Source: Eledone cirrhosa (Eukaryota). From it: DNA of 64,000 nt. The DNA lies in the NCBI GenBank assembly GCA_964016885.1, contig OZ024752.1:44020001-44084000 (forward strand), in the 5' to 3' direction. The translations under genes were made by a program, and so were the position numbers. Below, one piece after another: positions 1-64,000 of the stretch (position 1 is the stretch's first letter; each line of letters begins with the position of its first letter). The notes under the pieces are model-generated. The model searched no databases, was not told the origin of the DNA, and was given only the letters and a program-made list of their open reading frames with translations.

Positions 1-275
1 ATCTGATTTGACTTGTCTCACAATAGGACAACTCATCTAACCCATGCTAGCATGGAAAAATGGACGTTAAACGGTGATGTTGATAATGCAATACCTAAAA
101 GAAGCCAATATATATTTTAATGAAGCAATCTACCATTTCTGCCAACTTAACAACTCTCTTGTGGAAAAAATTATATTAAAATAATTATTTTAAAGTAATG
201 GTGATATTGTAATAGAGGTGACAACAAATTCATTAAAATAAAGATTAAATAATAATATAGAATATTCTGACATGC

Positions 276-459
276 CTTCAGAAGTTAACTTTTGGAGAAG
301 ACCTTTGCGAGATTTAATATAATGGCATTTCTTTGCAGTCACAGTCTGGAAATCAACTTCAATATAAGATTTTGGGGTGAGATTCCGGTCTTTAAATTGC
401 CAAAATGTTGTATCATACCCTGCTCCTAAGTTTATAATTTGGCAGTTACAGCGGGTGAG
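276..459 (-). CDS. LCMT1: LCMT1 coding exon 2 (SAM-binding motif I); gene continues left beyond the window
   Basis: After a TTTTAG acceptor it reads LTRCNCQIINLGAGYDTTFWQFKDRNLTPKSYIEVDFQTVTAKKCHYIKSRKGLLQKLTSE, in frame with exon 1. QI-x-NLGAG-x-DT and EVDF are LCMT1 signatures. The 3' boundary is probably a GC donor (AG|GCATGT). Confidence 0.9.
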
Positions 460-5363: not shown

Positions 5364-5407
<44 letters not shown>

Positions 5408-23300: not shown

Positions 23301-23462
23301 AATCAGAATATTCGCCTGTAATGATTCGAACAGCCACCTGCCAAGGAAATCTCCCATACACAGCATCTTCACCACTAATTATCTTAGAGTAGAAGTCTTC
23401 TTCAATTTCTCTGTCAGCACGTTTGCTTCTTATAAGGCGAGGTATTCGACCACAGACTGAGG
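17400..23462 (-). CDS. Protease: trypsin (S1A) catalytic domain, 5 exons
   Basis: Activation site K|IISG, FPWQV, HYCGGTI, SASHC (His), DVALLKL (Asp), [21 protein letters not shown] (Ser; Asp at S1 implies trypsin-like specificity), [13 protein letters not shown]. Confidence 0.95.
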
Positions 23463-26400
23463 CTAAGATGACAATGAAAATAAAATTCTTTCATATGAAT
23501 AAATACTAAATATTTATTTAAAATTGATGTTATTTGAGTATTTCGATTGAAGTTGAATTTGTTTTATTTTTTAACCCTTTAGCATTTAAATTGGCCGTAT
23601 CTGGCCAGAATTCTCTCACCTCTTTCTGTTAAAACCGGCCATAACTGGCCACTCATACCTATATTAAGGTATTGTTCTCAAAATAAATAATATCAAAATC
23701 TCATAGATTACATATTATGTGACATAATTATGTGAGGTAAAGCCTTTACTGTGAAAATACAATAGTAAATATAGAGTAATGTAAATGTTATGTGAGATAT
23801 TATGTGAGGTAAAGCCTTTACTGTGAAAATACAATAGTATATATAGAGTAATGTAAATGCTAATGGGTTAATGAAAAACATTGAAAACATCAACAATCAA
23901 ACAAAGCATTATATTATCACTTCTTTTAAAACTTATAAATCTAAATTTAGATAACGTACGAAGTTGAATTTTCAGCTTTTAAGCTATATATATACATATA
24001 TATATATCCTTATGTTTGTATGTAAAGACCTGTAATTCCTGATGGAGTTATAGAAATGTCATCAAGGCATACAACATGTTTTTACCACTTTAAACCTGGT
24101 GGAACCCATCCCCTCTCTGGGTCTGACATAGCCGATTTCTTCCAGAGAAGGAGAGATAAGAAGTGACAAGATGAATCAACCCCATTACTGAACTGGTACT
24201 TTTATTGACCTCGAAAGGATGAACAGCAAAGTTGACCATAGCTCAAATATTTTAACTTTATATGGCATATCCAAACAGCTCAAGTCTTCAAGAAGATGGA
24301 GAGATATTATCTAATTAGATGGTTTGGAAATATATGATTGTAATTAGAAAAGGATGGTCAGAGAAAAAAATTAGTAAATGGTCCAATAATTCTTTATTTT
24401 GGAGGGCAAACCAATAATTACTTATGAAAGAAATAAGTGGAACTAGTGTGGAACAGAGCAAAGTTGTAAAACTATCCCTTAATTTCCTTTAGAAATATTC
24501 TAAGAAGAAAAGACAATTGAAATAAAGAAAGATAAAAAATATATAAAAAAGAACAATAATGAAAATAAACATTTTCATAAGGAGGATGGGATATTTTGAG
24601 ACTGTTGACTTTGGAGGGATGAAATGTAGCAAAGATATTAAAGTATACACAACATAGTAAAGTGGGTACTAACATACATAATATTACTTAGTCAAGAAGT
24701 TTCGATTAAATAAAATTGCACCAATAATGAGGAGAAAAAATGGTTACTTCTGATCAAGAAAAACTGGAAAACAACTCCCGAATTAAAAATAATTTAATAT
24801 AGAATATTATAGGAAGTAGGTCTGATCTTTGGCAACTCGACGACAAATTTGGATATGTTTCAATCTTTACACCTCATCAGCAAAGCATAATGAATCTGGT
24901 ATTGCCAAATCTAAGAATGACTTTAGAGATATATAGGAGAGTGCCAATATAATTTAGAAATATGACTGGGAGAAACTATTTACAGACAATTCTTGTTATA
25001 TGAAAAACAAAAAAATAGTAAGATGGGTACTAACATAATTAATGTAACCTTGTCAAATATTTTATAGGGTTTTAATATTTGTCAAAGATCAGTATTACAC
25101 AGATCTCTCCCTTTAAATACACTAACACCTTTGTCAATACTTTACATATACTTAAGTGTAAAGGATACCTGTAGAACAAATGAAAATACAGTTTAATACC
25201 CTAAACCCTCATTTATTTAAACTACACTGTCAATCCCATTGTCTTACAACTACAATATAGCTTGCTGGATGGGAAGGGGTGCAGTTTCAATGTCTGCTAT
25301 AGGAGCTATTTTCCCTTGTTAGACCTCTGGATGTAAGAATATGTAATAAATTTAGAATGTTGTTATGTTTACTCTTAGGTGTTAGCAGAGACATAACGAG
25401 GGAAAATAGCCCCTATGGCTAGCAGTGAAATTGGACCTCTACCCAGCACTGTATTTTTACCTATGGTCCTAATATAAAAGGTTTAATGATCCAGCCACCA
25501 TAGTGTTCTCAGCCATGATAATCAGAGACAGATCATACATCTGAAGGAGTTTCTTTTTTCCCTCTCCGACGAGGTTTATTTGACTTTAATAGAACGTGCT
25601 CCTAGTCCAAGTGGCACCCCCTTCATGTGGGGCCCATGGCACGTGCCTTACTTGCCATACCCTAGTTACACCTCAGGGTGTTAAAATATATAATAAATCT
25701 AGAAGAGTGTTATGTTTACTTACGTTTACTAGTTGTTGATGCTACTGTTGTTGTTGTATAGGAAGTAGTTGTTATTATATCTCGATAACATTGTACAGCA
25801 GCATCTTCTGTGTGGGTACAATCATGCTTACCCCAAGGGCTTGACTCACATGATTCAATGGTATCTTCAGTGCCATCACAGTCGACCTCATCAAACCAAA
25901 TTAAACCTTTACCTTTTCCATAGGTACCTCCTGGTAGAGCAATACCTGACCTAGAAATAACAGAAATGGATTGTAATAACAAAATCAATAATTGATAGAT
26001 TGTAATAACAAAATCAATAATTGATAGATTGTAATAACAAAATCAATAATTAATAGATTGTAATAACAAAATCAATAATTAATAGATTGTAATAACAAAA
26101 TCAATAATTAATAGATTGTAATAACAAAATCAATGTGAAATAATTAAAAGCATAACTGAAATCAAATGAGATTTATTGCCCTATGTACTGTACATGTACT
26201 TTTTTGATGAGTTGCGGTGCACCTGGGCACTGTACACAATATTTCATTATTGTTATTGTTATTATATCATGACTCATACACTGTTTATTTTCCTGACATT
26301 TGTACATTATTCTATGTACTATACATGCACCTTTGATGAGTTGTAGTGCACCTGAGCACTGTACACAATAATTTCATTATTATTAAATGGCAATATAGAA

Positions 26401-31336: not shown

Positions 31337-34300
31337 CACACATATATATATACACACATATATATATCATATACACATATACACACACATACACATATAT
31401 TATATACACATACACACACATATATATATTAAACACACACACACACATATACACACACCTATATATACATATATATATTACATACCACAGTTTTGTTCAT
31501 CAGAAAAGTCATTGCAGTCGTCTCTTCCATTACATTTTTTTTCTTTTGTAACACATCTTCCATTATTGCACTTGAAGTCTGTGGCACTGCAGTTCTCTAC
31601 AACAATACCACATTATATATAGTTTGGTAACAGACTATATAGTTTGGTAACAGACTATATAGTTTGGTAACAGACTATATAGTTTGGTAACACAATATAT
31701 AGTTTGGTTACAGAATATATAGTTTGGTAACACAATATATAGTTTGGTTACAGAATATATAGTTTGGTAACAGACTATATAGTTTGGTAACACAATATAT
31801 AGTTTGGTAACACAATATATAGTTTGGTTACAGAATATATAGTTTGGTAACAGACTATATAGTTTGGTAACACAATATATAGTTTGGTAACACAATATAT
31901 AGTTTGGTTACAGAATATATAGTTTGGTAACAGACTATATAGTTTGGTAACACAATATATAGTTTGGTTACAGAATATATAGTTTGGTAACAGACTATAT
32001 AGTTTTGTTACAGAATATATAGTTTGGTAACACAATATATAGTTTGATAATACAATATATAGTTTGGTAACACAATATATAGTTTGGTAACAGACTATAT
32101 AGTTTTGTTACAGAATATATAGTTTGGTAACACAATATATAGTTTGGTAACAGACTATATAGTTTGGTTACACAATATATAGTTTGATAATACAATATAT
32201 AGTTTGGTAACAGACTATATAGTTTGGTAACAGACTATATAGTTTGGTTACACAATATATAGTTTGATAATACAATATATAGTTTGGTAACACAATATAT
32301 AGTTTGGTTACAGAATTTATAGTTTGGTAACAGACTATATAGTTTGGTTACAGAATTTATAGTTTGGTAACAGAATACTAATAGAATAGTTTGGTATATT
32401 TGTGAGAATGAGGAAAGATGACCTTACGTGAAAGTACATAATAATATCCACCAGAGAGTGCTGTAATGTGGAGAATCTTGAAGGTACCAAACAATTTGCA
32501 GCGTTTGTCTGACACCCGATAATGGAATGCTTTACACACAAATTTCTTATGATGTAAACATATTCTTGCACACTGGAGATAGAAATTCAGATAGAAATTC
32601 AGAAATATAAAAAAAAAAGGTAAGCATGTATATATATATATATATAATATAATTTCGATAAATTTTATGGATAACATATATTAAAACAATAGGAGTAGAA
32701 TGGTTTAACAGCGTTAGTTTCTTGTTAACCCTTTAGCATCTAAACTGGCTGAATTGTATTTTCATAGTAAAAGCTTTATCTCACATAACATCTCACATAA
32801 TATCGAATCTATGAGATTGATATTATTTATTTTGAGAACAATACCTTAACATCAGTATGAGTGGCGACTTACAGCCAGTTTAAACAGAAAGAGGCGAGAG
32901 AATTCTGGACGGATACGGCTGGCTAAATGCTAAAGAGTTAAAGTATTTATAGTCCTTTCCAATGCTACTTTATTTTTCTATATGTTTGACTAAACATTAA
33001 ATTTTCAATTATTTTAATAGAATTTTATCCTTGAAATATATTTGAAGGATGAAATAAAAAACAAGGTTCAAATCTAAAAAAAAAAACCCAACAAAATTAA
33101 CACATTAAGAAATAATTATGACTGATGACGACAACAAATAAAATTGTTTAACAACACAACAAAACATCCATTAAAATAATATAATCTCAAATTCTCTTCA
33201 ATTAACAAATGGAAAAGACAGAATTATTGATTATTGAACTTACAGTCTCCAGAGGTATGCGGACATACACTTCCTTTGGTACACTAACAATCAGGAAATT
33301 TAATTCTTGTTTCACAAACTGAGGGAGCTTGTAATCTAAGGAGGAAAAAAAAAATAAAGGAATAAAGTTTCTATAAATATCATTATTATGGCAGTATCGG
33401 TAGAGGGTCGGACGCCATGCTTTGCAGCATAGAGCCCTTTATGATCTGAGTTCAAATCCCGCTGAGGTTAACTTTGCCTTTTATCCTTACAGGGTCGATA
33501 AAATAAAGTACCAGTAATACACTGGTATAATTGCTGGCCTTGTGCCAAAAGTAGAAACAATTATTAAACAGCCATTTAAACTATGGCTATTTAAAAACTA
33601 GTCTGAAATAGATTTTAAAACTTAATATAAACACAAATATAAACAGTATGCTAAAGAGAATGAAAAGTGATTGTCTGATTGTTGTCATGTTCTCCTGAAG
33701 AGTTAATTTGACACAACAACAGCAATTTATCTGCTTCTATCTTGATTATGTCTTCCCTATTTACTCAGTTTAATCCTTTCATGTTTCAATGTTTCCTAAA
33801 ATTCACCAAAAGAGCTAGACATTTTTTTACTCCAGTTTAAAAAGTGCATGAGAAGTCCCAGTCGTCATCATCACCGTTTTACATCCATATTACCACGCTA
33901 GCATGGGTTAGACGTGAGATAAATAAAGCTGGTTATAAGTTGAACTTCTAGCAGACAGTTTAAAATGGCAAAAGGTTATGTCAGTCTCCTTCATTGAAAA
34001 ATTGGAAGGAGATGAATCCAGATGTCTTTATTGGCATGGAATGGTATGGTGCTATAAATCCCAATATTGTCACCTATTATACCTACCACAATATTGTCAC
34101 CTGTTACACCTACCACAATATTGTCACCTGTTACATCTACCACAATATTGTCACCTATTACATCTACCACAATATTGTCACCTGTTATACCTACCACAAT
34201 ATTGTCACCTATTACATCTACCACAATATTGTCACCTGTTATACCTACCACAATATTGTCACCTATTACATCTACCACAATATTGTCACCTGTTATACCT

Positions 34301-37300
34301 ACCACAATATTGTCACCTGTTATACCTACCACAATATTGTCACCTATTACATCTACCACAATATTGTCACCTGTTATACCTACCACAATATTGTCACTTG
34401 TTACATCTACCACAATATTGTCTCCTATTATACCTACCACAATATTGTCACCTGTTATACCTACCACAATATTGTCACTTGTTACATCTACCACAATATT
34501 GTCACCTGTTACACCTACCACAATATTGTCACTTGTTACATCTACCACAATATTGTCACCTATTACACCTACCACAATATTGTCACCTGTTATACCTACC
34601 ATGATATTGTCACCTGTTATACCTACCACAATATTGTCACCTGTTATACCTACCACAATATTGTCACCTATTACATCTACCACAATATTGTCACCTGTTA
34701 CACCTACCACAATATTGTCACCTGTTATACCTACCACAATATTGTCACCTGTTATACCTACCACAATATTGTCACCTGTTATACCTACCACAATATTGTC
34801 ACCTGTTATACCTAGCACAATATTGTCACCTGTTATACCTACCACAATATTGTCACCTGTTATACCTACCACAATATTGTCACCTGTTATACCTACCACA
34901 ATATTGTCACCTATTACACCTACCACAATATTGTCACCTATTACACCTACCACAATATTGTCACCTGTTATACCTACCACAATATTGTCACCTGTTATAC
35001 CTACCACAATATTGTCACCTGTTACACCTACCACAATATTGTCACCTGTTATACCTACTACGATATAAATATTGTCATATATTATACTTGCCGCAATCTT
35101 TCTCATCTTCACCATCAGAGCAATCATTTTCTCCATCACATTTCCAGGTCAGTGTAATACAGCTGTTGTTAGAATGTAGTTTACTTTAGAAATCAATTTA
35201 ACAAATACATGGGTTTTAATTTAAATGTTCTTAATAAAAATGAGACATTAGTTCATGGAAATAGTTAAAATGTAATTTCCTAGTATACATTATCTGAGGA
35301 AATGCTTCTCATATATCGTTTTAGTTATTGCAATGAAAACCCCTGAGAAAAATACAGTCATGTGTTATATGAATAACCAAAAATATGAATTTATCTTTTA
35401 GGAAATTCTTCTGAAGATTTTCCTATTCTACCACTACTTCCTAACATATTATTAAAAACGGTGAATTGGCAGTATCGTTAGAGGGTCGGATGCCATGCTT
35501 TGCAGCAAAGAGTTACGGCCCTTTATGGTCTGAGTTCAAATCCCGCCGAAGTTAACTTTGCCTTTCATCCTTACGGGGTCGATAAAATGAAGTACCAGTA
35601 ATACACTGAGTAATTTGCTGGCCTTGTGCCAAAAGTAGAAACTAATATTAAAACACGTTTAATGATTAAAAACCTCGTGAGGGTCAATTGTGAAAGACAA
35701 ATTAATTGTCTTACGTCTGATTTGCTGAACAAAACATTTTGTCAATGGGACAATTGATAGTGGGAACAGTTGTGACTGGAGCCGGTGTTGTAGTTAAAAC
35801 GGGTTTTGAAGCTGAAAATGTCAATAAAAAAAAAGTGTGAATTGGTTGCGAGAGTTACCTCCCTTCCCTGACAAACCTTCAGTGTTAAGATTCACAAGAG
35901 ACTCTGCTAATTATTGCTGACAATAAAACATATGAAACAGAATAAAGCATTTTATTCAGAAATATAAAACATTTCTTACAGATATCAGTATCTCTCGTCC
36001 ATGAAGTTATTTTACTTCCACCTAAAATATTACTGAAGTATAGCTTCCTCACAAATTCACCGCCACATTAAATTTTATCATTTAAACTATATTTTTGTTT
36101 TAATTATGTGAAAGAAGCTCCATTGAATGACTGTAGAAAAATAATCTAAATAATTCGGCATATAAACTTTCAAACTTTCTCATAAATTTCAAATTCTGCA
36201 AATCATTTCTAAACATGCAATCATTTATATAATAATAATAATAATGAAATTATTGTGTACAGTGCTCAGGTGCACTACAACTCATCAAAGGTGCATGTAT
36301 AGTAGATAGAATAATATATGTTGTAAATTGAATACTTACTACAGTCCACTTCATCTGAATTATCAGCACAGTCTTTTTCTCCATCACACTTCCAGGAATT
36401 TGGGATACAGCTGTTAGAATAAAAATGCATTGTTTTTGTAAATATACATTGTTTTGAATGGAACTCTTAAAGAAGAACGTTATCATTCCACTTTAGTGAG
36501 GGATGGAATGGCAGTGCCTATAACAATTTTCAGAGTTTCTAAGACTAGTGAGGGGTGTGGGGTGGATATCCTCAAACTAGAGTATTGGTCCAAATGTTTG
36601 CAACAAAGTGGACTCTACTAAAGGTACATTAAAGCCAGGTGGTGATTCTAAACCGGTTGACAGGTGGACTCTGGTAAAAGTACCTTAAGGCCAGGTGGTG
36701 GTTCTATGATGGGTGAGGGGTGGACTCTGTTAAGTGTACCTTAAGGCTAGGTGGTGTTGCTAAATAGGGTGATGGATAAGGTCTACCACCCAAACAGGTC
36801 ACATGAAGCATCTCATCCAACATTCTAAAAACTCCACCAATTCCCTGCCTAGCAACCTGTCACTGCCTAGCAACCTGTCCAAGGAACCGACCTGTGTCTC
36901 ATCAGCTTGTTGTTATAGAAACCAGAAGTAACCCTCAATGGCATGTGAATAGGGTAAAATTCTTTAAATATATTTTATGTATGATTAATGATATGAAAGA
37001 AACCTATTGAGAGCAGTTTTGTATTTCTTCAAAAAAAGGGTTAACCCTTTAGCATTTACATTCCTCTATATTTACTGTTGCATTTTCACAGTAAAGGCTT
37101 TACCTCACATTATATCGAATCTATGAGATTTTGATATTTATTTTGAGGAGATAATACCTTAACATAAATATGAGCTACCGATTACGACCGGTTTGAACAG
37201 AAAGAAGTGAGAGAATTCTGGCTGGATATGGCCGGTTTAAGGGTTAAAGGGTGAATGCAAAAATATCTTACGTTTGTAAACATAACATTTTGTCAGCAGG

Positions 37301-43300: not shown

Positions 43301-44881
43301 TATTAATAGTTAACCAATATTAATAGTTAAACATACTAATAGTTAACCATATTAATAGTTAACAAGATCAATAGTTAACAATATTAATAATTAACCATAT
43401 AAATAGTTAAACATATTAATAGTTAACTATTTTGATAGTTAACCATATTAACAGTTAACTGGAATGACTAATAAAAGAAGAGTAAGTTAGCTTAGAAACA
43501 TACCTTCTGTATAATGCTGTGTTTTCCCTCGTTCACAAATAAAACCTGTAACTGTGTTACAATTGGAAGCCTTCCAGAAGAAGTAATTAATCAGGTATTC
43601 TTTTCTATTATATTCAAACTTATTAGATAAGCTAATACACCTCCCAAATATGTTTGGTTCTGAAAATGTCTTATCAGGCTTCCATCCTGTAAAGAAGAAA
43701 ACATCAAATTCTATCAGTTTATCACCAGTCTCTCTATATGTAGGCATTAATACACCAATTCCATAACAATACTGAAATGTCTATCAAGACATTCTTAACA
43801 CTTTAGCATTTAAACCAGCCATATCCGGCCAGAATTCTCTCACCTATTTCTGTTCAAACCGGCTGTAACCGGCCACTCATACAGATGTTAAGGTATTGTT
43901 CCCAAAATAAATAATATCCAAATATCATAGATTCGATATTATGTGAGGTAAAGCCTTTACCACTAAAATACAATAGTATATATAGAGTAATGTAAATGTT
44001 ATATGAGATATTATGTAAGGTAAAACCTTTACTGTGAAAATACAATAGTATATATAGAGTAATGTAAATGTTATATGAGATATTATGTAAGGTAAAACCT
44101 TTACTGTGAAAATACAATAGTATATATAGAGTAATGTAAATGTTATGTGAGATATTATGTGAGGTAAAGCCTTTACTGTGAAAATACAATAGTATATATA
44201 GAGTATTGTAAATGTTATGTGAGATATTATGTGAGGTAAAACCTTTACTGTGAAAATACAATAGTATATATAGAGTAATGTAAATGTTATGTGAGATATT
44301 ATGTGAGGTAAAGCCTTTACTGTGAAAATACAATAGTATATATAGAGTAATGTAAATAGTAAAGAGTTAATTAATATAATAAATGAACAACACTAAGAAT
44401 TATAAACAATTTGTAATGTTATTTAATTTATATAAATAAAAAAAAATTATATATATACAAAATTAGTTTTTTTTGCTCTAACATACCGGATATATAAATG
44501 TATTTGTAAGTCTTATTTCAAATAATAATATTTGATTGGTTTGCAAGCAAAACAGAGTGTATTGAGGGTGTTTGTTTGCAAATGGATCAAATATTATTAT
44601 TATCTGATATAAAACTCACATATACATTTATATATATATATATTTATATATATACTTACCTGGAAACCAAAAGTAATCATGTATACTTTTTCTTTCAGAT
44701 CTCCAATACCATTTTCTACCAAGCTTGTAACCATCTGTCAACCAGACGTGGTTTTCTTCAATAAAAACAGATAAAAATAAAGTTTAGTAGGACAGGTATA
44801 TACTACAATAATACAGGTAAATATATACATATCTAGACAACCCATCGATATATATATATATTGATGGGTTGTCTAGATATA

Positions 44882-44919
<38 letters not shown>

Positions 44920-46756
44920 TATAGTATACTTAGCTAGGAGGGAAGCAGAGGATAGTAAATTCAAGCATGTTTTGCAACGTGAGGACCAGAAACAGGAGGT
45001 GTTCAAGATTACGAGGCAGTGTATCAGAGGGAATTGTGATGTCATTGGAGAGAAGTGTATTCGGAATGATAAAGGTGAGCTTGCCCTCACAAGTGCTGAG
45101 AAGAAAGATGCATGGGAAGAAGAGACCCTACCCCAAGTAGACCCTATAGAGGGGCCAGCAGTACAAGTCAGCAGCAGCGTAGTAAGTAAGGCAATCAAAG
45201 ATATGAAGATGGGGAAGGCAACCGGTCCATCGGGTATAGCTGCTGAGATGCTGAAGGCATCTGGGTCTGTAGGTCACACTATAACCACACGTATTGTTAA
45301 CCAGGTAATACTAGAAGGTGTTATACCAAAAGATTGGTGCAGTAGCATCATTGTCAACTGCTACAAAGGTAAAGGTGATGCACTCGATAGAGGAAACTAT
45401 AGAGGTATAAAGCTGATGGACCAGGTCATGAAAGTAACAGAAAGAGTTATAGCACAGTTGATTAGGGACCGGGTGAAACTAGACGAGTATGCTGATGAAC
45501 TCGCACTTATAGCTGAATCTATGGTAGAACTAGAGAAGAAATTCCAAACTTGGAAGCAGGGACTAGAAAGAAAGGGTCTCAAAGTCAACATGACAAAGAC
45601 TAAGATCCTTGTAAGTAGACGAGAAAACAGAACCCAGATCCCCTCAGGGAAATGGCCTTGCTCAGTATGTAGGAAAGGTGTAGGTAGGAACTTCATTCTC
45701 TGCCCCAAATGCAAACAATGGGTACACAAGAGATGTAGCGGGATCTCAGGAAGCTTAATTAAGAATGTAGGATTCACATGCAGCAGCTGTGCTGAGACAG
45801 CAAGCAGCAAACAGCCACAGGATACAAGTACCACCAATCCCTGGGAGGGCTCTGTAGAGACAGTAGACAGCTTCTGCTACCTAGGTGATCAAATTAGCAG
45901 AGGAGGTGGGTATTCAGAAAGTACAATAACTAGGGTAAGAACGGGATGGAAGAAGTTCAGGGAACTACTACCACTGCTAGCTGCAAAAGGCTTCTCCCTC
46001 AAAATGAAAGGCAGACTGTATGATGCGTGTATCTGAACAGCAATGTTACATGGTAGTGAAACCTGGGCGCTGAAGGTGGAAGACTTACGTAGATTAGAAA
46101 GAAACGAAGCCTGCATGCTCCGATGGATGTGTAATAGTAATATACGCGAACGACAAAGTATAAATGAATTGAGAGAGAGACTGAGCATAAGAGGAATCAA
46201 ATGCTGTGTGCAGGAGAGGCGGATGCGTTGGTATGGACATGTGATGCGTATGAAGGATGACAGCTGCATAAAAAAGTGCAGAGCACTAGAAGTCGATGGA
46301 AACCGCGGAGTGGAGAGACCCAAGATGTCCTGGGATGAGGTGATAAAAGCCGACATAACTCAATTACACCTCTCAAAGGCGATGAGACACGACCGTGACC
46401 ACAGAGTACCCGACCTCCCATGGGTACAAGCTGAAGCATATAGACAATATGCCCCCACACCCTCCCACTGCAAGGTGGTCGTGGAGGTGCCACGGCAAAA
46501 AAGCACCCAGCCCACACTGTAAAGTGGACGTGTAGGCGCCACGAAAAAGCACCCAGCACTCACTATAAATGAGGTTGGTGTTAGGAAGGGCATCCAGCCC
46601 CATGGATTTTATCTATTACATTCACGTATTATATTTCGAATACCTGATGATATCACCGGATTCATACGGAACCCGGTCATTGAAATGATCATAGTATAAT
46701 AAACCTTTCAAGGATTTACACAAATCCAGCCTCCTGTCATTTCATTATATATATAT

Positions 46757-46833
<77 letters not shown>

Positions 46834-49800
46834 ATACGACAATAATATGTTCATCTTTATATGTACATCTTTCTTCAAGCTAAGCTATTATATTCAGCAA
46901 TATAAATTAATTGTTTCTACTTTAGGCACAAGGCCAGCAATTACACAGTGCATTACTGGTACTTTATTTTATCGACCCCGTAAGGATGAAAGGCAAAGTC
47001 AACCTCGGCGGGATTTGAACTCAGATCATAAAGGGATGTAACTCTGCTGGAAAGCATGACGTCCGACCCTCTACCGATACTGCCAATCCACCGCCCTTCA
47101 GCAATATAAATTAATGTACTTAATTCTGACTTAGGAATTGAAGCTAACAATTTTTATGAGCAATATTTTCAAATATAAATAAATATACCCCAATGTGGAA
47201 ATGGCTCGTGTGAGTTTTGCTATGTTTTCTGAAACAGGTGAGCATCACGCAGGGAGATTCAGTCCAGATACAAACGTACATCCCTTCGCTTTGTACGACA
47301 ATGACTAAAGACAGTATTTAAAGACATTAACTGAAATTTAGAAAAATATATATTCTTACCTTCATTAGTGCTAAGTAGATTCGAAAGAAATTTATTTTCT
47401 TCCAAACTTTCAATGATAGCTAAGTGGCTACCTTTACTATGACACATTTCTTTAGCCCTCTGTCTTCTAGCATTGCCAACAAAGAGACGATAACAACCAT
47501 GCGGACCAGAGTACCACTCAGGTTTGCAATCTATCAAAATAAAATAAAATATAACTCAACATAACTCAACCAAAAAAACAAACATTACTGAAATAAGTTA
47601 TCTCCCTTGGACGGTAGCACCGTCAAACTTTATCTCCAAATATAATAATAATAATAATAATGAAATTATTGTGTACAGTGCTCAGGTGCACTACAACTCA
47701 TCAAAGGTGCATGTATAGTACATAGAATAATGTACAAATGTCAGGAAAATGAACAGTGTATGAGTCATGATATAATAATAATAACAATGAAATATTGTGT
47801 ACAGTGCCCAGGTGCACCACAACTCATCAAAAAAGTGCATGTACAGTACATAGGGCAATGCACAAACATCAGTTTGTTACTGTGTATATATGGACAGAGG
47901 CAGATATTAACGACCTATACCATCACTGCGTCAACAAGTCCAGAAAGTATGGCAGAACATTCTCTGGTATACAGAACCCCAACCACAAGCTACCTCGAAG
48001 AACACCAGAAGGTTTAACCCTTTAGCATTTAAACCGGCCATATCCAGCAAGAACCCTCTCACCTCTTTCTGTACAAAATGGCTGTAACCAGCCACTCATA
48101 CTGATGTTAAGGTATTGTTCTCAAAATAAATAACATCAAAATCTCATAGATTTGATATTATGTGAGGTAATTATGTAAGGTAAAGCTTTTACCATGAAAA
48201 TATAATAGTATATATAGAGTAATCATCATCATCATCGTTTAACGTCTATCTTCCACGCTAGCATGGGTTTAGACGGGAATTGTCACACGTGAGGCAAGAT
48301 TAGTTGTCTTGCTCGTATGGGACTATCTAGCGGGTTTTCTACGGCTGATGCCCTTCCTAACACCAACCACGTTTGCAGTGTGGACTGGGAGGTTTTTACC
48401 ATGTTACCTACATGGCCACATTACAGCGTGGACTGTGTGTTTTTTTTTGTTGTGACAGCTACACGACCTCATTTATTTAGGACTGGATGTTGTGGTACCA
48501 ACATAACTTTACAGAGAAAGGGGTGGTGTAGATGGGGCGGGGGTAGGGCGTGGGAGTGGGATGGGGGTGTATTTTTGGTTAGGAGGTGCCTACTGACTAT
48601 AGGTTTCGCTTTGTAATGTAAATGCTAAAGGGTTAAATTATGAAAATGATCTATGTGGTAAATGCTTTCCAACACAGTATCTCCAGACAATAGAGCATTG
48701 ATTGGTTATTTCTAAACCAATCAATTTAATATACACAGCCATTGACACTATGAAAATTGTTAATGCATATTTAAAACATATATATATGTTCAGTAAAAGT
48801 TGTTTTGGCAAAAATCAGGAGAAAGCTCTCTACATTCTTAGTCTGTGGTTACAATGGCGATTCAGTATAAGAATAACATTAAAAAAGATGCTGATATTAC
48901 ATAAATCATTTAGTCATTATAATTATTTCAATGGTTCCCTTATGCAAGCCAAGATGTAACATATACATTTGTTCTTGGTATGGGAACGATATCTTCAGAT
49001 GAAATATCCGTTTATGTGATATGCTGCAGGCAAAAAAACATGTCCTTCTTCTTGCATGCCTGGCAAGCTTGCCGAGCAAGAAGGATATGTTTATCATTAA
49101 GCCATTTATCTTGTCACAATATCATGAAACAGAATGGAAGAGAAATAGTTAAATTTGGAATAGAAACTAAATGAAACATTAAGAATATAATCTCACTATA
49201 TGTTACCCATAATAATTTTATTTTGAAACGTTTTTTCTTAATTTTCTTCCCAGACTTACCAAGGTTTGTTTTACAGATAACTCCGGCAGCTTCATTTGCT
49301 GAGCAATCATGTTCGGTATCATATGCGCAATATAGCAAAGAATTTTCATCTCCTGAACATTTTACATTATCCATATTATAGTTTGATGATTCAGCCAAAC
49401 CATACGTCGAACCTCCTAGAGCTGCTTCAGCACCCCTAAAAAATGAAATAGAATAACATTTCTTTATTGTTATAGACTGGAGTATACGGTGTATATATAT
49501 ATATACATTGTAGTACAAATTTGGTATGGATATCCAAGGGTTTAGCGCACTCAGTCCGTACGATGAGTTAAGTATAATTAGTTATAACAGTTAACAGTGA
49601 CATATACAGATACTTCAGCCAGTCATAAAAAAGAAAAATGATTTCCCTCTGTGGAGATTATTTTTTAGAACAAATTTTGCTTCATGAGGACAGAGATTAA
49701 AGCAGTCAAGCCGCATATTTAAGCAGCGTTTCCTGGAGGACAGTTGTGAGAGTATATTCCACTTCTTTGAGCTATACAGCTGACAAAATGTTGCCCCATT

Positions 49801-51110
49801 GACGTAGGGGGTGGATCTTTCCATTATCCTCCATTTAACAAAGAACTCTGTGGCCTTATCTTTGAGAATGAAAGGCAAAGTTGACCTCAGTGAGATTCAG
49901 AAAGTTTTGTCTGATGTTCTAATGGTTCTGCCAATCCACCACCCTACTCTGAAATAGATAAGTATAAAAATAAAATATAAAAATAATAATAATAATGATC
50001 TACTATAGGCACAAGGCCAGCAATTTTGGGGGAGGGGGAAATTCGATTAAATCGACCCCAGTGTGTAACTGGTACTTTATTTTATCAACCTCATAAGGAT
50101 TAAAGGCAAGGCTAACCTTGGTGGGATTTGATCTCAGAACGTAAAGGGACATAACTAAACCGTGAAGCATGGTGTCACACGCTCTACCGATTCTGCCATC
50201 CGATAATGATGATAATATAAATTCTACAAAGCAGTATTCTTCAGTGAGAATATATCAACAACTTACCTGGCAAATCCAAGTTGATTACAAGCTACATTAG
50301 CATCTTTAATGTCCCAATCATCATCACAGACATAACCCCAACTGTTGTTACGGTAAATACTTATCAAGCCAGCATTGTAGTAAGTTGTATTACCAGTAAG
50401 ACTGAAAAAAAAAGAAATTTATTTTTATTCAGATTAATTGTTTCTACTTTTGGCACAAGGCCAGCAATTACCCCAGTACGTTACTGGTACTTTATTTTAT
50501 CAACCCGTAAGGATGAAAGGCAAAGTTAACCTTGACGGGATTTGAACTCAGACCATAAAGGAACGTAACTATGCTGGAAAGCATGGCGTCCGACCCTCTA
50601 CCGATACTGCCAATTCACTGCCTTTGTTCAGATTAACGTCAACTGTTTTAATAAGTTTTTTAAATTTACAACTCAAAGTAACATAGCTAAGTAATGTTGT
50701 TTTTTCGTCATATATAATGTTTTTTTAATGACTAAAGAAAATTAATTGTTGCAGGAATGCTATCATTTAAAATCAAATTTCGCCAGAGATAGATTAGCCA
50801 AATTTAATAAGCGGGGGAGGTTGGAATAAGAGGTGAAGGATGGGGTGAAAAAAATTATGAGCTTAAAGAAGGTCCAATAATATACAAGGGATAATTATTT
50901 GTTTAGTAAGGACAAAGCTTTAGAAGAAGGTTGAGAATAACATTCTATCAGTCTTACCGAATACGACTATGGCCTAGAGGTTGATAAACAGAATATTTTG
51001 CATTGTTTGTAGTCACGTTACCCTGTCCAGGTTCAGGCACTGCCTAAAACAAAATGAAAAATATATTTCTTTATAGATGTATTTAGATAGATACAAGGAG
51101 AATGTGTGAG

Positions 51111-51178
<68 letters not shown>

Positions 51179-51575
51179 GTGATAAATGAAAGATATATAT
51201 ACTTTATATCATTATATATATTTCGAAGATGTAAAGTTTTATGTATAACATAAAGCAAAACATGTCCTCCTCAGACAAAATACATAGAAAATGTATAATT
51301 GTTTTCATGATATGCTGGAAGACAAACGAGCTGGACAGATCGGTGACCACCAAGCATATGACTAGAAAAAACTCAACATATATATATATATGTATATATA
51401 TATATGTTGAGTTTATATATATATCATATTATATATATATATATATAAAGTCAACATATATATATATATATATATATACATATATATATACATATACATA
51501 TATATACATATACATATATATACATATATATATACATATATATATACATATATACATATATATACATATATATAC

Positions 51576-51619
<44 letters not shown>

Positions 51620-51777
51620 ATTATTTGCTCCAGGACTTGTTGAGTGCTCTAAATCAGCTATAAACATTTATACCTTTATCTATTTATTTATTTATTTATT
51701 ATTTGTCGTTTTCCCAACTATTTCTTTACCCCTTCCACATTTTTATTTTTATATATATATAATATTTATGTATTTTC

Positions 51778-51815
<38 letters not shown>

Positions 51816-53014
51816 ATATATATATATATAAAATATTAAACAAATAATGAATAAACAATTTCTTATATTAAACAAAAAAAGTTCATTATTTAACGATCGT
51901 TTCTAGGATATATATGTGTTAGAGTTGGCATGCATATTCAACAGATCTATGTACAAAATTATACAAAATTATACAAACTATCAAGATTAAATATACATAC
52001 CAACACATATATACGCCGTCTTCAGAAATAATGAAGACGGCGTATATATGTGTTGGTATGTATATTTAATCTTGATAGTTTGTATAATTTTGTATAATTT
52101 TGTACATAGATCTGTTGAATATGCATGCCAACTCTAACACATATATATCCTAGAAACGATCGTTAAATAATGAACTTTTTTTGTTTAATATAAGAAATTG
52201 TTTATTCATTATTTGTTTAATATTTTATCTTGACTCTGTATACCGTTTATCTTTCACCGAAAGTGATTTTTCATTACATTTCTTCTTTCCATGATATCCG
52301 GAATACATTGAGTTCTTCATACGGATTGGACACTACCGTAAACTCTTGGTAGATTTATCTACATATATATATATATATATATTTATTAAAATAACATTAA
52401 AGTTTAAGCAAAGAATCGCTGCTTCCACCCTTAACGGGATCTTCTGAAACTAACAAAGTCAATCTGTGAACGCAGAAGTGAATATTTCAAAAAACGTTGC
52501 AACCGGAGGAAGACAGGAATACGATACTTTGGTTGGTGGAAACGTTCCCTCTTTGCTTAAACTTTAATCTGTTATTTTAATAAATATTTGCTCTACGGTT
52601 CTTATATATTTGATATATATTTATCCTTATCGAGCCCTCTTTGGATTTTAGTCTTCAAATTTATGATTATTACTATATATATATGTGTATATATATATAT
52701 GTATATGTGTGTGTATGTGTGTGTGTGTGTATGTATATATTTATATGTATGTATGTGTAAATGTGTGTATTGCTTACCACGTGTGTTTGTTTATTTATTT
52801 GCGTCCTTTCCTGTATCGCTGTCAACTTTATAATAATTTTATTTTCTTAAGTCGTATATTATTTATTTTTATGTGACGGCCTATTGCATTATATGGTTGT
52901 CCATTGTTTTTATTTTTATTTTTTCTTATAATTAATTGTGTGTGTGCGTATGTATGCGTGTATATATGTGTGTATGTATGTGTGTGTATGTACATGTATA
53001 TATATGTATGATTA

Positions 53015-53075
<61 letters not shown>

Positions 53076-53103
53076 TTGTGTATTTATGTGTATGTGTATG
53101 TAT

Positions 53104-53147
<44 letters not shown>

Positions 53148-53226
53148 ATATATATATATTTATGTGTATATATATATATATGTATGTGTGTATATATATA
53201 TATGTATGTGTATATATGTGTGTATG

Positions 53227-53257
<31 letters not shown>

Positions 53258-54097
53258 ATGTATATGTGTGTGTGAGTGTGTGTGTGTGTGTCTGCATGTG
53301 TATTTATCTACTTTTATATTTATTCTTTTTCCTTTCCTTCTTCCTTTTCCAGCCACACTTTCATATAGATTATATTTTTGTTTTTAAAATCCACTCTCAA
53401 TAAATACACCAGGATTTTTTCATTCTGATGACTGAAAGCAAATTTTGTTTGCTTTCAAGAAACCACTGGTAAATGAAATAATTATCTTATGTTGTTTATT
53501 ACATAACTAATATATATATATACAAGGAAAAAAGATGAAATCGAAAATGCAACTGGAGTCTTTTTCTTTTAAATATATATTTATATGGTTCCTTTACCGG
53601 TTTCGCAGTTCTTGTGTTGAGATGGAAGTTTGTGGTTTTTCTCGCATCAGATACGAGAAAAACCACAAACCTCCATCTCAATTCTACTTTTGAAATGCAC
53701 AAGAACTGCGAAACCGGTAAAGGAACCATATAAATATATATTTAAAAAAAAGACTCCAGTTGCATTTTCGATTTCATCTTTTTTCCTTGTACTTTCACTT
53801 GTGTAGGACATCTCGTTTTTTTTCATTTTGTAAAAAAAACCTCACGTTCTAATATATATATAAATACAAGTTAATATAAATTATAAACACGTAAGTGTTT
53901 GCATTGCAAAAGACTAAGTTAGCTAGAATGAAATAAACTAATTAAAATAATTTTAATTAGTTTATTTCATTCTAGCTAACTTAGTCTTTTGCAATGCAAA
54001 CACTTACGTGTTTATAATTTATATTAACTTGTATTTCATGGCTCAGAAGTGCTTCTTTCATTGAGCTAATTAATTGTAAATGACTCTAAATATAATA

Positions 54098-54143
<46 letters not shown>

Positions 54144-57100
54144 ATATATATACTTTTGGGAGAGAGGGGGCTGTTTTGCTTGTTTTTGTTTATTTGTTTT
54201 TCCTTTAATTATATCAGAGTACTCTCTCTACTCTCTACTCTATCTTTCAATGAAAAAGATGAACAGAAATCAATTATTAATTATCTCTCAACAGATTTAT
54301 AAATTGAACAACAATCTTTAAACTATGTAAATATAAGGGTTTTGTCATATGTTCTTACCACATCACCGATATCCAAGTCCTCACCACTTTTCTTACACTG
54401 CAAATATAAAAAAGAAAGGAATGATATATTCTTGTTCCAAAAATTAAAAAAGTTATCAATTACATTATATACATATGTGAACATTTTCATGTGTGTGTAT
54501 ATATATATATGTTGTTATGTGTGTATATATGTTAATGTATATAGTACACTGTTATTGTGTGTGTATATATAAGTGTATATGGTACACTGTTGTTGTGTGT
54601 GTATATTTGTTTTGATTATATGGTTTCTAGGTGTGGACGTCCTTCCAAACACAAACCATCTCATTGATATATATTTTCTTTATAAGTACAGTTCTCTGTG
54701 TGAAAATATTACTGGGTACCCTTCTACTGATATTTATCTGAATGGCTAAATGTCAGTAGAAGGACACCCAGCAATCACGACCAGGGTGCCACCTGGTCCC
54801 CTTACAGTGTAAAAGGTTAAGGGCCGAAACACTTGCTTGATGCAGGTTTCTTCTCTGAAGACTTTCTGCTGTCCAGCTCTCCTGGGAGTTTCTTCTCTGA
54901 AAACCTGCTGTCCAGCTCTCCTCAGATTTTCTTCTCTGAAAACCTTCTGCTGTCCAGCTCACCTGGGAGTTTCTTCTCTGAAGACCTTCTGCTGTCCAGC
55001 TCTCCTGGGAGTTTCTTCTCTGAAGACCTTCTGCTGTCCAGCTCTCCTGGGAGTTTCTTCTATGAAGACCTTCTGCTGTCCAGCTCTCCTGGGAGTTTCT
55101 TCTATGAAAACCTGCCGTCCAGCTCTCCTCAGAGTTTCTTCTCTGAAGACCTTCTGCTGTCCAGCTCTCCTCAGAGTTTCTTCTCTGAAGACCTTCTGCT
55201 GTCCAGCTCTCCTCAGAGTTTCTTCTGTGAAGACCTTCTGCTATCCAGCTCTCCTCAGAGTTTCTTCTGTGAAGACTTTCTGCTGTCCAGCTCTCCTCAG
55301 AGTTTCTTCTCTGAAGACCTTCTGCTGTCCAGCTCTCCTCAGAGTTTCTTCTGTGAAGACCTTCTGCTATCCAGCTCTCCTCAGAGTTTCTTCTGTGAAG
55401 ACCTTCTGCTGTCCAGCTCTCCTCAGAGTTTCTTCTGTGAAGACCTTCTGCTATCCAGCTCTCCTCAGAGTTTCTTCTGTGAAGACCTTCTGCTGTCCAG
55501 CTCTCCTCAGAGTTTCTTCTCTGAAGACCTTCTGCTGTCCAGCTCTCCTCAGAGTTTCTTCTCTGAAGACCTTCTGCTGTCCAGCTCTCCTCAGAGTTTC
55601 TTCTCTGAAGACCTTCTGCTGTCCAGCTCTCCTCAGAGTTTCTTCTCTGAAGACCTTCTGCTGTCCAGCTCTCCTCAGAGTTTCTAACCAGTTTTATTTT
55701 TATGTTTTTCTATATTTCTATATGTGTGTACATGGTTGATTAAAAGTGTGTATGTGATTGTATGGGTTAAATTACGCATCTACACTTACATTCTTTTTTT
55801 CTCTTCCCCTCAGTCCTGCACACTGAAAACAAATAAATGAAAATCGTAATTATTAAAGTAAATAATTAGTGATTTACATTTCTAGAGTCTATTTATTTTC
55901 ATTTTATTTATTCCATGGTAAATAAAAATAACAAAAATTAGCTGTTATTGTTGTCATGCAATGAATAAATACATCAACAAAACTTAATATGATATCAATC
56001 ATGTACATTATCAAGGGCAGTACCCCAGCATGGCCTCAGCCAGATGGCTGGAACAGGTAAAAGAGTAAAAGAGTAAAAGAGTATTATTTAGCGTCCATAC
56101 TGTAACGAGGTTGTCGTTAGGAAGGACATCCAGCTCTAGAAACCATATCAACATATAGATCCATATGAGCAACACTTGGTCACCTAACCTGAATTATCTC
56201 ACATGACAACACATCTGGCCCATAGGAGCAGGGAAAGATAGATGTGAGACGATGATGATGGTAGTGGTGGTGGTGTGGTGGGGGTGGGGCGTGATGATGA
56301 TGATGATGATGATGGTAGTGGTGGTGGTGTGGTGGTGGTGGTGATGATGATGACGGAGGTAGTGGTGGTGGTGTGGTGGTGGTGGTGGTAGTGGTGATGA
56401 TGATGATGATGATGGTAGTGGTGGTGGTATGGTGGTGGTGGTGGTGATGATGATGATGATGATGATGGTAGTGGTGGTGGTGATGGTAGTGGTGGTGATG
56501 ATGGTAGTAGTGGTAATGATGATGATAAGGATGATGTATAGGTTAATTTGAGAGAAATTGAGGTGCTATTTCTAACAGGTTAAGTAATCACGTAGATATT
56601 CCCTTGTTCAGTTCAGCAACATTGCCATTGATATATACCAACCTTTAAAATTGGATATTTTATTCTAAAATCTCTCCAGAATTGATTATATTGAAAATTA
56701 AATGAAACACACAGTCTACTCTTTAAAAATAAAGATACAAAAATTAAGTGAAACACAGTCTACTCTTTAAAAATAAAGATACAAAAATTAAGTGAAACAC
56801 ATTCAGATTGATAATATTTGATGATCTAAAATATGATAAAACCAAAACTGTTTTAATCAAACTTAAACTAAACAATAAATATTGTAAATTGTTTAATGTA
56901 TCTTCTTACTCTTTGAGGATTGGGACCAGGGCCACGCCCGTGGCTTTCTTTTTTACACTGCAATAACAAGATTAGAAAGAACAATAAGTCTTTGTTGACA
57001 GAATAAGTGTATAGGCATTATTAACCCTTTAGCATTTAAACTGGCTGTAACTGGCCACTCATACTAATATTAAGGTATTGTTCTCAAAATAAATAATATC

Positions 57101-63000: not shown

Positions 63001-64000
63001 GGTACAGCAGTGGTACAATATTGTACAGTGGTACAGTGGTACTGTGGTATTGTGGTACAGTGGTACTGTGGTATTGTGGTACAGTGGTACAGTGGTACTA
63101 TGATACTGTGGTACAGTGGTACAGTGGTACAGTGGTACAGTGGTACTGTGGTACTGTGGTACTGTGGTATTGTGGTACAGTGGTTCTGTGGTACAGTGGT
63201 TCTGTGGTACTGTGGTACAGTGGTACTGTGGTACAGTGGTACTGTGGTACAGTGGTACTGTGGTACTGTGGTACTGTGGTACTGCGGTACTGTGGTACAG
63301 TGGTACAGTGGTACAGTGGTACAGTGGTACAGTGGTCCAGTGGTACAGTGGTACTGTGGTACAGTGGTATTGTGGTACAGTGGTTCTGTGGTACTGTGGT
63401 ACAGTGGTACTGTGGTACAGTGGTACTGTGGTACTGTGGTACTGTGGTACAGTGGTACTGTGGTACAGTGGTACTGTGGTACAGTGGTACTGTGGTACAG
63501 TGGTACAGTAGTACAGTGGTACAGTGGTACTGTGGTACTGTGGTATTGTGGTACAGTGGTACAGTGGTACAGTGGTACTGTAGTACAGTGGTACTGTGGT
63601 ACTGTGGTACAGTGGTACAGTGGTACTGTGGTATTGTGGTACAGTGGTACAGTGGTACTGTGGTACTGTGGTACAGTGGTACAGTGGTACAGTGGTACAG
63701 TGGTACTGTGGTATTGTGGTACAGTGGTACAGTGGTACAGTGGTACTGTGGTACAGTGGTACTGTGGTACAGTGGTACTGTGGTACAGTGGTACAGTGGT
63801 ACTGTGGTACAGTGGTACAGTGGTACAGTGGTACTGTAGTAGTGGTACTGTGGTACAGTGGTACAGTAGTACAGTGGTAGTGGTACTGTGGTATTGTGGT
63901 ATTGTGGTACAGTGGTACTGTGGTACTGTGGTACTGTGGTACAGTGGTAGTGGTACTGTGGTATTGTGGTACAGTAGTACAGTGGTAGTGGTACTGTGGT
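63001..64000. repeat. 8-bp satellite (GTGGTACW)n running off the window
   Basis: Interspersed GTGGTACA and GTGGTACT units. Confidence 0.95.

Follow-up and report, generated by a model that had tools for sequence, protein, structure and literature searches.

Clumped type I hammerhead motifs near a serine protease gene of Eledone cirrhosa are very probably the 3' ends of truncated Penelope-like elements

In this report we analyse a stretch of 64,000 nucleotides from the Eledone cirrhosa genome (assembly GCA_964016885.1, contig OZ024752.1, forward-strand positions 44,020,001 to 44,084,000; hereafter the window), the minus strand of which carries a gene for a modular serine protease. A first-pass annotation, made from the letters alone, had marked a cluster of four type I hammerhead ribozymes in the introns of this gene, and had proposed that the two on the minus strand could cut the intron RNA. 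We find five canonical motifs and two core variants within a few kilobases, and we consider it very probable that at least eight families of Penelope-like elements (PLEs), mostly of the Hydra clade, left them here as truncated copies whose 3' ends carry the hammerhead. These copies likely came to lie together by inserting into one another's TA repeats.

Results

Both strands of the window were scanned with our own type I hammerhead descriptor, which demands the core CUGANGA, GAAA and UH in that order with an open stem I. All four motifs of the first-pass annotation (HH1 to HH4) were recovered with their elements correctly ordered and with CUGANGA at 46644(+), 51274(-), 52025(-) and 53425(+), respectively. 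The cleavage sites that had been predicted after 46693(+), 51892(-) and 53471(+) agree with ours, which add one after 51213(-) for HH2, and the palindromic stem III described for these motifs is seen in all four (Table 1). The descriptor also returned a fifth canonical motif absent from the earlier list, HH5, with its core at 48998(-). Two further motifs, reached via the perfect hairpins of the region, deviate from the type I core obeyed by the other five: family X, with A at core position 4 (A4), and family Y, with a U3-A8 pair. Downstream of each motif, about 40-200 nt away, lies a TA or ATT tract, which bears out the reported closeness to (TA)n. Shuffling, which had been named as a possible refutation, left the motifs standing: dinucleotide shuffles of the whole window gave a mean of 0.03 motifs and none of 60 reached five, nor did any of 300 shuffles of the 6.9-kb region. 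Under a stricter stem II filter (four straight pairs) one motif passes, a number matched by 1 of 60 shuffles, because four of the five motifs carry a mismatch at stem II position 4.

Table 1. Hammerhead motifs, element ends, nested inverted pairs and host exons in the window
Feature	Position	Strand	Remarks
HH1 hammerhead	46640..46697	+	stem III ATGATCAT; stem II mismatched at positions 1 (U-U) and 4 (C-C); cleavage predicted after 46693; antisense to host gene
HH1-family element end, 5'-truncated, short 3' end	46595..46744	+	followed by (TA)n at 46746-46836; matches loci L212 and L213
Protease exons	50266-50401, 49260-49434, 47360-47529	-	SRCR, SRCR, C-type lectin (Pfam)
HH5 hammerhead	48914..49002	-	stem III ATAATTAT; stem II mismatched at position 4 (C-C); cleavage predicted after 48918; element ~48785-49068
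HH2 hammerhead	51209..51278	-	stem III ATATATAT; stem II mismatched at position 4 (C-C); cleavage predicted after 51213; element ~51161-51382
HH4-family element, upstream part of 3' untranslated region (UTR)	51515..51830	+	83% to loci L220, L194, L070; separated from remainder by two nested insertions
HH3-family head-to-head inverted pair	51828..52365	.	perfect 197-nt arms, 51828-52024 and 52032-52228
HH3 hammerhead	51882..52035	-	115-nt stem II; stem III ACGATCGT; stem II mismatched at positions 1 (C-A) and 4 (C-C); cleavage predicted after U at 51892
HH3-family tail hairpin	52232..52316	+	RCUC-stem-loop-stem, 2-nt bulge, GAGY; directly beyond short 3' end
Family X inverted pair (Hydra-clade element)	52379..52676	.	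nested beside HH3 pair
Family X hammerhead variant	52401..52451	-	core CAGAAGA, with U4 replaced by A; 7-nt loop on 5-bp stem III; this copy GGAA for GAAA
HH4-family element, microsatellite-rich 3' UTR and short 3' end	52674..53522	+	82% to L220
HH4 hammerhead	53418..53478	+	7-bp stem I; 11-bp stem II after C-A mismatch; stem III ACCACTGGT; lacks the C-C mismatch; cleavage predicted after 53471; antisense to host gene
Family Y inverted pair (Neptune/Nematis-type element)	53510..53855	.	decayed U3-A8 core variant at 53686-53723(+)
Family Z inverted pair	53862..54090	.	perfect arms of 87 nt, with a short and a long end; truncation stops it short of its hammerhead

The protease gene continues on the minus strand beyond the exons in Table 1 through kringle, LDLa, SRCR and trypsin exons (Pfam) to ~18,100. 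The three tabulated exons are joined end to end in one spliced contig of run X4 and HH5 is therefore intronic; HH2 and HH3 probably also lie inside the transcript, the 5' end of the gene being outside the mapped part. As had been claimed for the minus-strand motifs, HH2, HH3, HH5 and the family X motif are on the transcribed strand. Two separate exons at 23131-23490 and 20196-20417 (-) both match the start of a trypsin domain, which suggests either two protease domains or a duplicated exon.

Each motif stands for a family of its own with hundreds to tens of thousands of genomic matches, in keeping with the proposal of several distinct families. A pattern search with the 3' half of the HH1 motif (at most one mismatch) gave 7,995 genomic matches and none for the control. 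First-look candidates number 1,115 for HH2, 447 for HH3 (many of them 100% identical), 1,132 for HH4 (100% identity in 42 of 49 among the matches listed; 3,230 exact matches to its tail) and 696 for HH5, whose copies are 82-93% identical. Family X has 21,271 matches with A4 versus 219 with another base there, while the intact motif of family Y, UUGAAAA (U3-A8), from which the window copy has decayed by two changes, has 6,229 exact matches. A random sample of 39 ten-kilobase stretches at fixed positions (390 kb) held 23 canonical motifs, one probably spurious, as against none in each of eight shuffles. By Poisson arithmetic this density, about one motif per 17 kb, corresponds to roughly 1-3 x 10^5 motifs in the 3.0-Gb genome, where the copies exceed 100,000 and belong to dozens of diverged families. 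The same sample predicts 3.8 motifs per 64 kb (P(>=5) = 0.33), so their number in the window is ordinary for this genome; their clumping is not, with P = 6e-4 for five uniform points to span at most 6.9 kb. Motifs of other families lie in the neighbourhood at 0.07-0.18 per kb in five of six sets, against a background of 0.059.

What these families are is best seen in their long copies. Hydra-clade PLEs are recognised by RWK, by a change of DKG to DKT, by a CxCX5C linker and by a C-terminal GIY-YIG-like domain without the CCHH motif (PMC8557442), and Hydra-1_Obim from Octopus bimaculoides carries a hammerhead and has a preference for (TA)n (supplement of PMC8557442). HH1, HH3, HH4 and X adjoin open reading frames (ORFs) for a Hydra-type reverse transcriptase (RT)-endonuclease. 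In the HH3 family, direct repeats flank an 813-aa ORF at locus L071 and recur at a spacing of 6.9 kb in L061-L062; in L194 and L198 the HH4 motif is located just upstream of a related ORF, and in L220 it is found 1.3 kb downstream of a Hydra-type ORF; an HH1-family copy in L212 has such an ORF directly downstream; and family X forms a motif-ORF-motif unit of 3,259 bp in L345 with DKT, YRDD and CxCX5C. Units of this kind are present in L071, L345 and L355. For HH2, a Hydra-type endonuclease lies ~1 kb upstream of the motif in L214 and is 76% identical to the inverted endonuclease beside the motif in L221. The HH4-family ORF, which by eye resembles the published Hydra-1_Obim protein, has RWK and SDKT, that of HH3 has RWR and SDKT, and that of X has SDKT; the HH1 copy in L212 is frameshifted in the RWK/DKT part and has YRND in place of YRDD. 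All four carry the CxCX5C linker, and no CxxC is seen by eye between the two halves of the GIY-YIG-like motif. Like Hydra elements, the families also combine insertion into (TA)n with a hammerhead near the 3' end. Among the Atlas neighbours of the Hydra-type ORFs (0.96-0.99), some members are annotated with HTH_animal, GIY-YIG and RVT_1. In an unrooted tree of 13 ORF rows from this genome alone (one row shorter than 130 residues was dropped), the families free of the mismatch at stem II position 4, HH4 and X, separate from the other rows with 94% support, joined by one fragment of the HH5 locus L216. Family Y differs: its canonical RT-GIY-YIG ORF has GLKF, DKG, a CX4CxxC linker, RVT_1 and GIY-YIG at the C-terminal end, and the presence of DKG, a linker of the form CX2-5CxxC and this endonuclease marks it as a Neptune/Nematis-type PLE of one of the two clades. 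Relatives of family Z in L046 and L051 have a hammerhead-like motif further upstream.

The copies have a characteristic anatomy in which the 3' end falls at one of two fixed points past the cleavage site, a short and a long end, and is then followed by TA. These points lie at ~39 and 105 nt in HH4 and at 64 and 201 nt in HH3, and TA follows 56 of 61 HH3 ends and 45 of 57 HH4 ends, which agrees with the earlier suggestion that TA is targeted. Head-to-head inverted copies usually join one end of each kind: of the 87 pairs left after de-duplication, drawn from seven motif groups, 78 combine a short with a long end where 43 would be expected (P = 2e-15), eight have two short ends and one has two long ends, a long end being scored by a family-specific word. 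The HH3 pair in the window conforms, with the short end on its minus arm (64 nt past the cleavage site) and the long end on its plus arm (201 nt). In run X1, summed contig depth over motif plus tail is about ten or more times that over most of the ORF, as expected from heavy 5' truncation, and the contigs show no splice joint in the HH3 element. A further short near-perfect hairpin between TA tracts, at 44813-44894, is probably one more truncated inverted pair.

The clumping is probably the outcome of elements nesting in TA tracts. In the HH4-family element, the 3' UTR (51515-51830 and 52674-53522) is split at a TA tract by the inverted pairs of HH3 and X, and the pairs of Y and Z come next, in the TA tract at the end of the element; three insertions interrupt or abut it. 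The 48-56 kb block holds 28 TA tracts as against 2-18 in the other 8-kb blocks, an excess that is in part a result of the insertions themselves. Since the ~3.8-kb 3' UTR of the HH3 family (L071:1800-5650) is largely TA/CA microsatellite, the element brings its own future target sites. With a genome-typical motif density and nesting to account for the clumping, the idea of a special cluster is not supported.

Comparison across families supports the fold and brings out an unexpected feature of it. In 13 representatives with an unpaired stem II position 4, which were hand-picked after the feature had been noticed and include several close kin, 90.4% of cells are paired (30-52% in slid controls, and 0 of 500 shuffles as high) and 14 of 16 pairs show two-sided changes, covariation of the stems being a test that the first-pass annotation had proposed. 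In this set, selected as it was, position 4 pairs in none of the 13 families and its 5' C is invariant, while all other pairs of stems I and II change on both sides. Without the stem II filter, 182 of 204 cells pair (37-46% when slid), and C-C or C-U occupies position 4 in 15 of 45 clusters, with normal pairing in 22. The mismatch is C-C or C-U in 15 of the 23 motifs of the random sample, and among genomic motifs with stem III ATATATAT it is C-C in 27,359, with 2,045 lacking the 5' C and 1,254 the 3' C; the exceptions among the matches listed look mostly like single-base decay. Preferential conservation of the core, also suggested as a check, holds for HH5 (9/319 changes versus 134/1785 in stem II), while the gap in HH2 is small (7/319 versus 40/1247).

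Just beyond the short end, 9 of 12 clusters with at least four members carry a hairpin that opens with RCUC, continues into a short stem with a variable loop and, after a 2-nt bulge, closes with GAGY, a pattern occurring in random genomic sequence at 0.004 per 85 nt (the best member was taken per cluster). In the HH5 family the ends covary as UCUC/GAGA; the tail of the window copy folds no better than shuffles; the HH3 tail hairpin has a fold z of -2.5, and 5 of 200 shuffles are as stable. By eye, the hairpin is also present in four of six published Hydra consensus sequences (Hydra-2_Amil, Hydra-1_Ajap, Hydra-2_Ajap and Hydra-1_Crog), and is thus common to coral, sea cucumber and copepod elements; we found no description of it in the available portion of PMC8557442.

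Several other repeats were seen along the way. A Poseidon-like RT-GIY-YIG family (L070:3861-5819, L162-L191) has 17,682 first-look candidates, many with open frames of 887 aa, and a 3' end with a fixed hammerhead-like stretch, a GUGA-capped stem plus GAAA whose core does not fit CUGANGA. A link of the HH4 motif to the 653-aa Poseidon-like ORF in L070 was rejected, this ORF being a separate nested element. Runs X5 and X6, from two other organisms by label, contain short HH3-family pieces, some nearly identical (on L071:6600-8930). In the window, a very abundant short repeat occurs three times (46905-47097, 49999-50213 and 50412-50628), by far the deepest part of the contig-covered stretch, and long minisatellite arrays lie at 54846-55685, 34062-35066, 31615-32377 and 63023-64000 (units of 42, 27, 20 and 8 nt). 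An exon-like frame at 193-459 (-) reads like a leucine carboxyl methyltransferase.

Discussion

The main finding of this study is that an apparent cluster of ribozymes beside a host gene is very probably a nest of PLE debris, in which at least eight families are represented by truncated copies that kept their 3' end and with it the hammerhead. The placement of the motifs at PLE 3' ends, in the repeats known as pLTRs, rests on linkage to ORFs, clade motifs, TA targets and inverted pairs. Several observations weigh against this reading. The window gives no Rfam hit at gathering score, and no hammerhead family is among the 73 Rfam matches with E<=10 in the 44-56 kb part, so that the Rfam comparison recommended by the first-pass annotation was negative; the miRNA hits in the region are the perfect hairpins. 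Pfam detects no RT or GIY-YIG family in the Hydra-type ORFs and a search of solved structures with them gave no match, their identity resting on the motifs, the by-eye likeness to the Hydra-1_Obim protein and the Atlas neighbours. The ORF link is weak for HH5, where the fragments are separated by other repeats and two of them fall at different places in the tree, and indirect for HH2. Automatic mapping of HH1 ends failed against a divergent reference (4 of 41 followed by TA), although TA is visible by eye in the printed arms, and the HH5 set shows no enrichment of neighbouring motifs (0 per kb). Finally, the hammerhead is not the lowest-energy monomer fold for HH1, HH2, HH3 or HH5.

Could the motifs be chance matches in AT-rich sequence? 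Stem I is just 4 bp long in HH1, HH2 and HH5, and the absence of an Rfam match points the same way, but the shuffles, the covariation of the stems across families and the 122,024 genomic matches to the general pattern, as against 3,514 for a reversed control, refute this reading, which we regard as practically impossible. The first-pass annotation had left open whether the motifs derive from PLEs or from retrozymes, and it is the former half that has stood. Non-autonomous non-LTR retrozymes, short tandem hammerhead repeats that make circular RNAs, share the type I fold with a palindromic stem III (bioRxiv 10.64898/2026.07.22.740005), and the majority of copies here are short and lack an ORF. 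However, no tandem array covers any motif and no tandem non-coding units, each with a hammerhead, were found; the copies vary at the 5' end, stop at fixed 3' ends and come with inverted partners; and the long ones continue into RT-endonuclease ORFs. A retrozyme origin, which is largely refuted for HH1, HH3, HH4, X and Y, is therefore very unlikely overall, and we read the families as ends of autonomous RT-endonuclease elements, mostly of the Hydra clade.

The other alternatives concern what the fold does. It is conceivable, though it seems to us very improbable, that the host co-opted sense-strand motifs to cut the protease pre-mRNA and so tune its output, as their position on the transcribed strand and their clumping might suggest. 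The window copies themselves speak against this. In the pre-mRNA, HH3 is predicted to be locked in the 197-bp perfect hairpin, with a pairing probability of 0.0 for its stem I; HH2 has a deletion that removes part of its family's stem I 3' strand; X has GGAA and Y its two changes. The window holds no partner of the same family on the same strand, stem III duplexes between sense motifs of different families are predicted to be unfavourable (+1.2 to +2.4 kcal/mol), the intron with HH5 is crossed by a spliced contig, and the density across the genome makes intronic copies routine. Cutting of the protease pre-mRNA, put forward in the first-pass annotation, is thus unlikely as far as these predictions go, and the truncated ends are likely harmless to the gene. 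A different possibility, to which we give more weight while still thinking it rather unlikely, is that the fold serves the elements mainly as a protein-binding or RNA-pairing structure, with cleavage weak or dispensable for transposition. The 21,271 copies of family X with A at core position 4, the lack of a clear pile-up of 5' ends at the cleavage site or stem I edge in tail-picked copies and an in vitro study in which hammerhead mutants left insertion unchanged (PMC11167929) all argue against a need for cleavage. The 5' end falls within 10 nt of the cleavage site in 2 of 30 HH1 copies and 1 of 25 resolved HH4 copies (at 9 nt; five more were unresolved), cleavage required protein in that same study, and activity is low even for dimers in another (PMC4209133). 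Against a purely structural role, 45 clusters retain the core while their stems covary, with the caveat that this core is required by the descriptor; the HH5 core varies less than its stem II and that of HH2 slightly so; and family Y keeps its 3-8 pair as U-A, a covariation compatible with activity (PMC3088659). U4C, U3-A8 and U10.1-U11.1 are tolerated natural variants in the same source, in the available portion of which U4A was not found among them.

Our preferred reading, PLE ends in which the hammerhead retains a function, can be put as a tentative sequence of events. A tandem source copy would be transcribed, the element protein would nick (TA)n, reverse transcription would start internally at two sites 40-200 nt past the hammerhead and stop early, and two cDNAs would join head to head. 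The fold would be kept by selection in source elements, whose tandem transcripts may cleave slowly, as dimers or with help from protein, while intronic copies would decay and likely not cut host RNA. Predicted double-hammerhead dimers come within 4.2 (HH3) and 0.2 (HH4) kcal/mol of the best cofold, HH2 being 13 kcal/mol off. Much of this has precedents: PLEs are prone to insert into or beside earlier copies (PMC6765202), a tail on one end of an inverted pair has been published (PMC3846280, PMC8557442) and this pattern has been tied to two internal RT start sites (PMC11167929).

Comparison with known systems highlights important similarities and differences. Our elements resemble Hydra-clade PLEs, including Hydra-1_Obim, in the C-terminal endonuclease ORF with RWK, DKT and CxCX5C, in (TA)n insertion, in a type I hammerhead with palindromic stem III near the 3' end, in a U-U at stem II position 1 (14 of 26 published Hydra rows by our count) and in inverted copies with a tail on one end (PMC8557442). 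They differ in a stem II of up to 115 nt, in tails of 65-140 nt versus 30-40 bp and in the ~6.9 kb of the HH3 unit versus "generally <3 kb", a length due to its microsatellite-rich UTR; the stem III of Hydra-1_Obim is two bases different from that of HH4, and one octopus Hydra family has been published versus dozens in this genome (PMC8557442). With the minimal, small-palindrome hammerheads of metazoan PLEs they share a dispersed occurrence in each genome of thousands of motifs from truncated elements, pairs on opposite strands separated by 100-700 bp, a dimer-type stem III and the U3-A8 core variant seen here in family Y (PMC4209133). Those motifs usually have G10.1-C11.1 and an extra base at the 5' side of stem II, whereas position 1 is often mismatched here; our stem III is mostly 8-9 nt, unlike theirs; and their largest counts, ~4,000-9,000 per genome, compare with more than 100,000 here. 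PAc Poseidon elements of Anolis likewise have AT-rich targets and 3' ends at two fixed points beyond the hammerhead, interpreted as a pair of internal RT start sites, but belong to another clade with another tail structure, and no strand difference in start site was reported, whereas 78 of 87 pairs here use one end each (PMC11167929). Animal non-LTR retrozymes have a type I hammerhead related to that of PLE pLTRs but are non-coding tandem arrays, in contrast to the dispersed ends of coding elements described here (bioRxiv 10.64898/2026.07.22.740005).

The kind of element is thus known, and the same clade has already been reported in octopus; novelty may lie in the scale, in the C-C class and the A4 family, and in the tail hairpin. 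Among the 26 Hydra hammerhead rows published in PMC8557442, none carries A4 or has C-C or C-U at position 4 of stem II, and our literature search returned no description of the C-C mismatch, of U4A or of octopus hammerheads of this kind, with the proviso that Lunse et al. 2017 on dimeric PLE hammerheads (cited in PMC6765202) may already describe C-C/A4. The figures and supplements of PMC4209133 and PMC3088659 may also bear on novelty. From its height on stem II, the mismatch may be a docking or protein-binding site, or it could be an inherited quirk of one subclade. More speculatively, and with doubts on our part, this Hydra subclade might represent a new structural class of hammerhead whose C-C (or C-U), at the fourth step of a long stem II, stands in for the loop contact with stem I or serves to bind the element protein. 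Family X would then show that A4 is no bar to a spread beyond 21,000 copies, and the bulged RCUC/GAGY tail hairpin, found from coral to this genome, would be what sets the two RT start sites, one per target strand.

For annotation, these findings mean that such motif clusters in this genome are routine transposon debris rather than host ribozymes. The role of the hammerhead in PLEs is unsettled (PMC8557442, PMC11167929), and natural variants with which to test it are at hand in the C-C class, in the A4 family, whose stem III is closed, and in the U3-A8 family; the tail hairpin, together with the rule of one short and one long end, offers a handle on how PLE reverse transcription starts and how inverted insertions are built.

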